A DNA stretch of 64,000 nt from Candidatus Bilamarchaeaceae archaeon (GTDB lineage Archaea > Micrarchaeota > Micrarchaeia > Anstonellales > Bilamarchaeaceae): positions 1-64,000 of the forward strand of contig JAVZJR010000004.1 of NCBI GenBank assembly GCA_038870635.1, read 5' to 3'. Under the pieces are notes generated by a model that saw nothing but the letters and a program-made list of their open reading frames with translations, was not told the origin of the DNA and ran no database searches. Numbering within the stretch: the first letter of the stretch is position 1; each line of letters opens with the position of its first letter. Position numbers and translations under genes: made by a program. Shown piece by piece: positions 261 through 39,054 of this stretch.

Positions 261-345
261 AGCCCCCGGCGGGAATTGAACCCGCGGCCTCGTGCTTTTT
301 GTTTTTTGATACCAAGCACGCGCTCTACCACTGAGCCACAGGGGC
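261..345 (-). tRNA. tRNA-Thr(GGT) with 13-nt intron at 37/38 (intron 297-309)
   Basis: GCCCCTG/CGGGGGC acceptor stem, GCTC/GAGC D-stem, CGTGC-TTGGTA[intron]A-GCACG anticodon arm, GCGGG-TTCAATT-CCCGC T-arm; relaxed BHB; CCA not encoded. Confidence 0.95.
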
Positions 346-10959: not shown

Positions 10960-11048
10960 GGGCCTGTAGCTCAGCTTGGTAGAGCGTCGGACTTTTATGT
11001 TCCTTCGAGGACATCCGCAGGCCAGGGGTTCAAATCCCCTCAGGCCCG
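10960..11048 (+). tRNA. tRNA-Lys(TTT) with 15-nt intron at 37/38 (intron 10998-11012)
   Basis: GGGCCTG/CAGGCCC acceptor stem, GCTC/GAGC D-stem, TCGGA-CTTTTA[intron]A-TCCGC, AGGGG-TTCAAAT-CCCCT; CTTT/GAGG central helix. Confidence 0.95.
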
Positions 11049-38944: not shown

Positions 38945-39054
38945 AGCTGGGTAAGGGAATCGAACCCCTCTCTACCGCTCTCAGCAAATCATTGGCTTTT
39001 AGCCTCAGAAGAGCGATACTGCAGGCGGCCGCATAACCGATCTGCCAACCCAGC
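38945..39054 (-). tRNA. tRNA-Cys(GCA) with 39-nt intron at 37/38 (intron 38980-39018)
   Basis: GCTGGGT/ACCCAGC acceptor stem, U73, GCCGC-CTGCAG[intron]A-GCGGT, AGGGG-TTCGATT-CCCTT; BHB central helix CTGC/GCTG (3 of 4 pairs). Confidence 0.95.
38980..39018 (-). ncRNA. putative intron-encoded minimal box C'/D' (K-turn) 2'-O-methylation guide
   Basis: UAUCGCUCUU-CUGA-GGCU-AAA-AGCC-AAU-GAU; the guide is complementary to tRNA-Cys nt 36-44 and its +5 position is G39. Confidence 0.6.

Follow-up and report, generated by a model that had tools for sequence, protein, structure and literature searches.

A candidate half-size box C/D guide in the intron of an archaeal tRNA-Cys gene

The intron of a tRNA-Cys(GCA) gene was analysed in a 64,000-nucleotide (nt) window, positions 1-64000 of contig C4, from the 859-kb genome of a Candidatus Bilamarchaeaceae archaeon. 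The gene is located on the minus strand (39054-38945), flanked by two protein genes, and its 39-nt intron appears to be a natural half-size box C/D RNA that combines a single C'/D' motif with a single guide; it is termed a half-guide because the terminal C/D box and a second guide are absent. Such a guide would direct 2'-O-methylation of base 39 of the tRNA before splicing, a reading to which we assign a probability of roughly 0.75, the methylation itself being predicted from sequence.

Structure of the intron cassette

Read along the minus strand, the intron begins with the guide (39010-39018, spanning -10 to -2 relative to the D' box), followed by one unpaired base (39009), a D'-type box CUGA (39005-39008), the canonical stem-loop of a kink-turn (GGCU-AAA-AGCC, 38994-39004) and a 3-nt bulge with a C'-like box AUGAUUU (38986-38993), within which the AAU bulge occupies 38993-38991 and the GA 38990-38989. 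The C'-like box matches RUGAUGA at five of seven positions. The predicted target (38973-38981, minus strand) consists of the last two intron bases and exon bases 38-44 of the unspliced precursor, and the guide-target duplex has nine pairs, one of them G-U. C39013, the -5 guide base, stands opposite G39 (38978), the predicted 2'-O-methylation site by the +5 rule for the methylated base (PMC7994747). A sequence-only reading made earlier had proposed the same minus-strand intron sequence and layout, including the D' box with kink geometry and the fifth base upstream of CUGA facing G39, and these were recovered exactly. Its description of a single-guide cassette, analogous to the tRNA-Trp intron guide and much smaller, also agrees with the one motif and one guide found here.

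Chance expectation was estimated by shuffling the intron 100,000 times with its dinucleotide composition preserved. A kink motif that reached the set score arose in 671 shuffles and a kink motif together with a weak match in the 39 register in 18; a kink motif with a match equal to that of the real intron arose in none (0/100,000). The intron alone folded no better than its shuffles (z = -0.35), as expected since the energy model omits kink-turn pairs. The lowest-energy fold of the free precursor is the guide hairpin. The guide-paired fold and the splice fold are mutually exclusive, and in a local comparison for the studied genome the guide-paired fold lies 3.2 kcal/mol above the anticodon-stem fold; fold comparisons here leave out kink-turn and protein energy.

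Conservation and covariation in relatives

The tRNA-Cys genes of relatives were gathered using patterns blind to the guide (the 5' exon alone or together with the cores of both boxes), which gave 308 parsed genes, 252 of them distinct, and 17 unparsed pattern hits, mostly intronless genes or false hits and including one locus of the family (L326). Introns were then chosen by the kink motif alone, with RUGA as part of the selection rule, and the register was tested over all precursor positions. The best pairing register placed -5 on base 39 in 56 of 60 motif-picked introns; one of the four misses is a chance motif (L285), and the rest are ties or near ties. Two further genes were added to give 62 distinct tRNA-Cys introns. 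L285 was kept among these and left out of the energy and member counts, and L323 was added by eye.

Watson-Crick pairs were found across the 62 introns at -2 (61), -3 (61), -4 (60), -5 (61) and -6 (61), and at -7 in 51 with a further nine G-U pairs. Position -1 forms a Watson-Crick pair in one of 62; an unpaired base there is usual for such guides. When the register was slid by 1-3 bases, pairing fell to 15-40%, from 85% in the true register. The pair formed by -5 with base 39 is C:G39 in 55 introns and G:C39 in six from other lineages, so the facing of base 39 that had been proposed is kept through a change on both sides.

Covariation was assessed by aligning 35 of the shorter members; in this alignment 94% of cells in the named structure are paired. 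Both-side changes occupy 35 cells compared to 6.6 in shuffles (0/500 as high); the count of pairs with a both-side change, 5 vs 3.5 in shuffles, was not significant (67/500). RNAalifold recovered the guide helix unaided on the same alignment. The kink-turn stem is paired in 100% of cells with both-side changes at two of its three pairs, and the stem-loop varies in length and sequence across relatives through compensatory changes. The D' box of the 62 motif-picked introns reads NUGA in 59 and CCGA or ACGA in three, and the RUGA core of the C' box is kept (within the selection rule). Conservation of the CUGA box and kink-turn in related introns, and covariation of the guide with its target, base 39 included, had both been suggested as checks with the sequence-only reading, and both were borne out.

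Spacing is also regular. The GA of the C' box ends 9-10 nt upstream of the splice site in 57/62 introns, and the guide starts at intron base 1-4 in most members, with 8-13 nt of sequence ahead of the D' box in 50/62. Duplexes span 7-8 pairs in most relatives and nine in the studied genome.

Target in the unspliced precursor

The guide is predicted to target the junction of intron and 3' exon in the unspliced precursor rather than mature A36-A44, because -3 covaries with the last intron base and not with mature base 37. The pair of -3 with the last intron base is U:A in 51, C:G in five, A:U in three and G:C in two (61/62 paired), whereas -3 and mature base 37 form a Watson-Crick pair in only 9/62 (48 G-U, 5 mismatches). 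By genus label, C:G at -3 occurs in two genera whose remaining members have U:A, and A:U and G:C were found in further lineages. The studied genome alone cannot separate the two targets, because its last two intron bases (AG) equal A36-G37; mature and precursor junctions score equally there (8.5 each). Given this identity, the earlier reading had assigned the duplex to A36-A44: its nine-base pairing with one G-U holds, and its choice of partner gives way to the precursor junction. Covariation with the last intron base agrees with the rule of methylation before splicing in Haloferax, where intron sequence takes part in the pairing of both the 34 and the 39 guide (PMC2584109).

The tRNA-Cys gene and its splicing signals

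The 5' exon (39019-39054, minus strand) comprises G1-G37 with the anticodon at 39022-39020, the intron (38980-39018, minus strand) interrupts the gene at position 37/38, and the 3' exon (38945-38979, minus strand) comprises A38-U73 and is followed by a T run; G37 is 39019 and A38 is 38979. Intron boundaries were set by the anticodon stem and the splice-site helix. The bulge-helix-bulge at the 37/38 junctions is a relaxed motif in which the intron strand of the central helix (38982-38985, minus strand) forms three of four pairs with bases 32-35, and the 5' part of the guide also serves as the inner splice-motif helix. A splicing endonuclease family match is present in the genome. A second CUGA near the intron end (38984-38981) was considered as a D box and rejected, because this strand of the splice-site helix varies in relatives and the motif is not kept.

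Both default ARAGORN and Rfam at gathering score overlooked the tRNA-Cys(GCA) gene, and ARAGORN recovered it only with the intron search and a relaxed score. Rfam searches of the window at gathering score and of 10 loci from relatives with E values up to 5 gave only tRNA and weak chance matches. A sigma-70 promoter and terminator scan, which is unsuited to archaea, gave no match.

Two further intron-containing tRNAs are present in the window at 261-345 (minus strand) and 10960-11048 (plus strand), wrongly labelled Asp and Stop by ARAGORN. Inspection by eye assigns them to Thr(GGU) and Lys(UUU); both have a short intron at 37/38 that lacks the kink motif.

Distribution of the cassette

The family has 82 tRNA-Cys loci, of which 81 were parsed: 37 carry the cassette by script (38 including L323), 34 (33 after L323) have another intron and 10 are intronless. 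Carriers occur in 12/21 genera of the family, and named records with the cassette are Candidatus Micrarchaeota and Ca. Bilamarchaeum. Outside the family it was found in two genomes from a different family within the class (L257, L455), on unplaced metagenome contigs (L268, L301, L309), and, in another phylum (around a Woesearchaeota record), in 3/401 genomes as kink-loops (K-loops) without a stem. The phyla around the Aenigmatarchaeota and Iainarchaeum records (91 genomes each) gave pattern hits in 13/91 each and no cassette by eye. A search of 176 genomes of the order for 39-type cassettes in other tRNAs, made with a generic pattern, gave by eye only Cys, one Met-like case and chance matches; this pattern misses introns accompanied by a second, T-loop intron. 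Genomes marked as unpublished carry none of the conclusions drawn here.

Other sequence features recur in these introns. Many Micrarchaeota tRNA-Cys introns (L022, L030, L046, L049, L056, L060, L152, L221 and others) carry hairpin inserts that are palindromic and T-rich/A-rich; in some introns these are stacked on the 5' side of a cassette that is itself intact. A GCTCCAG-like motif, which resembles the tRNA-Trp anticodon loop, is common to the cassette-less introns L023, L026, L039, L040, L214-L218, L220, L231 and L327.

Box C/D machinery and related RNAs

Genes for fibrillarin, Nop5 and L7Ae, whose presence had also been named as a check, were all found in the genome and look intact. Fibrillarin was found in 93/99 family genomes, carriers or not, and in 4/4 distant carriers. 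The genome also encodes three canonical two-guide box C/D small RNAs (sRNAs; G000:C1:385378, plus; C2:77525, plus; C2:115756, minus), with guides that match a G+C-rich stretch of contig C7 (probably rRNA) and the tRNA-Leu anticodon region. A half-guide pattern scan of the same genome returned seven matches, and only those to the Cys and Met introns are convincing. Motif look-ups of rRNA, too limited to exclude trans targets there properly, gave no match.

The Met intron belongs to the elongator tRNA-Met (G000:C1:157310-157482, minus strand, outside the window); it is 51 nt long and has a one-kink guide aimed at C34. A second insertion after it repeats exon bases 38-47. Elongator tRNA-Met introns of the family have the same one-kink layout aimed at C34: the pattern occurs in 46/99 genomes, and of 31 parsed introns the motif is present in 30, with the best register at C34 in 28/30. 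The tRNA-Trp introns of the order, gathered by DNA search, contained no guide among the 22 parsed from 30 loci (that of the studied genome included), and two match the loose box pattern only.

The surroundings of the protein genes were also noted. The Nop5 gene (G000:C1:181082-182054) directly adjoins an intron-containing tRNA gene on the opposite strand, and the fibrillarin gene is located ~0.1-0.7 kb from tRNA-Cys in several cassette-less family genomes (G008:C1, G194:C21, G082:C12, G299:C14, G338:C51, G425:C136, G363:C7 and G022:C7). The loop of L7Ae (L034:1447-1827, minus strand) reads I-G-V; presumably the corresponding loop of archaeal K-loop binders reads L/I-E-V. Family cassettes have a full stem and not a K-loop.

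Comparison with known guide RNAs

Several features of bipartite box C/D sRNAs are present, namely a D' CUGA, the kink geometry, a Watson-Crick pair at +5 and the genes for L7Ae, Nop5 and fibrillarin. The terminal C/D motif and second guide are absent, so the intron is not a bipartite sRNA. The cassette is a variant of the tRNA-Trp intron guide that would work like its position-39 half and stands outside the bipartite family. Like the pre-tRNA-Trp guide of Haloferax volcanii and Pyrococcus (sR50), it lies in the 37/38 intron of the tRNA at which it is aimed (PMC7994747, PMC4090602, PMC2584109, PMC6313347), it pairs across the exon-intron junction of the precursor, and it faces one of the two Trp targets, with pairing to intron sequence that precedes splicing; position 39 is a known intron-guided site (PMC2584109). 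Trp introns differ in being 65-103 nt long and in combining a C/D with a C'/D' motif and a guide for 34 with one for 39, whereas the Cys introns, from DPANN archaea, are 31-50 nt in most cases and have one motif and one guide of 7-9 bases for G39 or C39.

The one-kink architecture is, by our reading of a published sequence, already in print. The 66-nt elongator tRNA-Met intron of Nanoarchaeum equitans, as given in the supplement of PMC3491384, has one CUGA, a 3-pair stem, a GAAA loop, a 3-nt bulge and GA, in the same layout and aimed at C34 in the 5' exon. Its RNA is abundant in RNA-seq and was termed a potential C/D sRNA, with no target prediction listed (PMC3491384). Engineered halfmer C/D RNAs and human C/D-like halfmer small nucleolar RNAs likewise have one box pair and one guide (PMC7229835; PMC1635284), but the former are deletion constructs and the latter are weakly conserved, whereas the Cys cassette would be a conserved natural C'/D' halfmer within its own substrate. 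C'/D'-only half-guides methylate site-specifically in vitro with archaeal proteins (PMC7229835). A literature search, which took in PMC7994747, PMC4090602, PMC6313347, PMC3488258, PMC7668247, PMC6009581 and PMC12558985, found no guide in a tRNA-Cys intron, within a coverage that left out most subscription papers, the primary Trp papers included. A preprint on Asgard introns (10.64898/2026.10.13.758758) mentions no guide, box C, K-turn, kink, methylation or Cys.

Proposed mechanism and alternatives

We propose that L7Ae would bind the kink-turn in the unspliced pre-tRNA-Cys and that Nop5-fibrillarin would then load. The guide would form a duplex of 7-9 bases with exon bases 38-43/44 and the two intron bases that precede them, opening the anticodon stem and the splice motif, and fibrillarin would 2'-O-methylate base 39 (G39 in the studied genome, C39 in other lineages). 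The precursor would then refold to the bulge-helix-bulge and be spliced, and the methylated base would stay in the anticodon stem.

A number of observations weigh against guide function. Archaeal guides are 10-12 nt long (PMC7994747) and 9-10 base pairs were best in vitro (PMC7229835), while here -8 is mostly G-U (14 Watson-Crick, 45 G-U) and -9 is paired in only 23/56. An in vitro half-complex methylated without site specificity (PMC1635284), and the assembly of C'/D'-only RNAs in cells has been doubted (PMC7229835). Positions 5-7 of the C' box are not conserved, whereas the ordinary sRNAs of the genome have full boxes. Across 61 introns the splice form is the more stable of the two folds in the absence of protein, with a median difference of 4.2 kcal/mol from the guide-paired form. 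The nine-base guide match occurs at 47 places in the genome, so the guide is not specific without proximity. The cassette is dispensable, given that 43/81 family tRNA-Cys genes lack it and some copies are decayed (L005, L226), and one carrier (G015, 91% complete) has no fibrillarin match. At L333 (G803:C1:1120-1166, minus strand), which has C38, the guide pairs over 9-10 bases and the +5 base faces 38 instead of 39, making it a possible retargeted guide. Finally, because related genomes are not independent of one another, the counts are higher than the number of separate events.

Some of these points would also suit an L7Ae-dependent folding switch or splicing timer that acts without methylation, in which kink-turn and antisense would hold a splice-incompetent hairpin and so tie tRNA-Cys maturation to L7Ae, or aid folding. 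Two mutually exclusive folds within a few kcal/mol, the freedom of C' positions 5-7 and the retained pairing in a shifted register at L333 are consistent with it, as is a central splice helix that is imperfect in 60/65 cassette introns compared to 46/99 other Cys introns and, within the family, 20/34 non-cassette Cys introns (counts that again come from non-independent kin). A switch, however, needs no +5 register, no unpaired -1 base and no known methylation site, and in Met introns this motif is aimed at C34, which is likewise a known site; we therefore regard it as unlikely. A relic or by-product, either a duplication from the anticodon stem or a guide that is decaying and has lost its function in the studied genome, would account for the patchy presence and for decayed copies in kin, one of them in the same genus (L005), and a likeness between the guide core and exon 29-31 is unavoidable. 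Sequence duplicated from exon 29-33 would not, though, change in step with the last intron bases, and the studied copy keeps all nine pairs, the CUGA box and a stem of four pairs, with a compensatory C:G change in common with its closest kin, which makes this origin very improbable. The least probable of these alternatives is guidance in trans by the excised (circular) intron, which would then pair with A36-A44 of tRNA-Cys after splicing. In its favour are the frequent occurrence of circular Trp introns (PMC12558985), the stability and abundance of the N. equitans Met intron (PMC3491384) and the equally good pairing of the mature junction in the studied genome, but -3 is Watson-Crick with mature base 37 in 9/62 introns vs 61/62 with the last intron base.

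For the half-guide acting on the precursor, action within the same molecule (cis) is favoured by a slight degree, because a 7-9 base A-U-rich match is unspecific alone (the 47 genome sites above) and the spacing to the splice site is fixed. The alternative is that a precursor or an excised intron acts on another precursor molecule, and in vitro work on the Trp intron guide favoured trans (PMC7994747, PMC2584109).

Implications for tRNA introns

The tRNA-Trp intron has been called the unique case of an intron guiding modification of its own tRNA (PMC4090602), and a real role for tRNA introns is otherwise called unclear (PMC3488258). A conserved guide in tRNA-Cys introns would give another intron class a job. 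The cassette would also offer a natural 35-40 nt substrate for the dispute over a single box motif and site-specific methylation (PMC1635284 vs PMC7229835), and the same substrate bears on cis vs trans action of intron guides (PMC2584109). A broader and more speculative idea, which we hold to be somewhat doubtful, is that DPANN tRNA introns carry modular self-targeting cis half-guides, in which methylation and splicing folds toggle, the splice helix is weakened, and base-39 methylation gates splicing. If this broader idea is true, these introns would provide the first natural, conserved guide of the C'/D'-only type to act on the molecule that carries it, and what the Trp intron does at both 34 and 39 would be divided between the Met and Cys introns.
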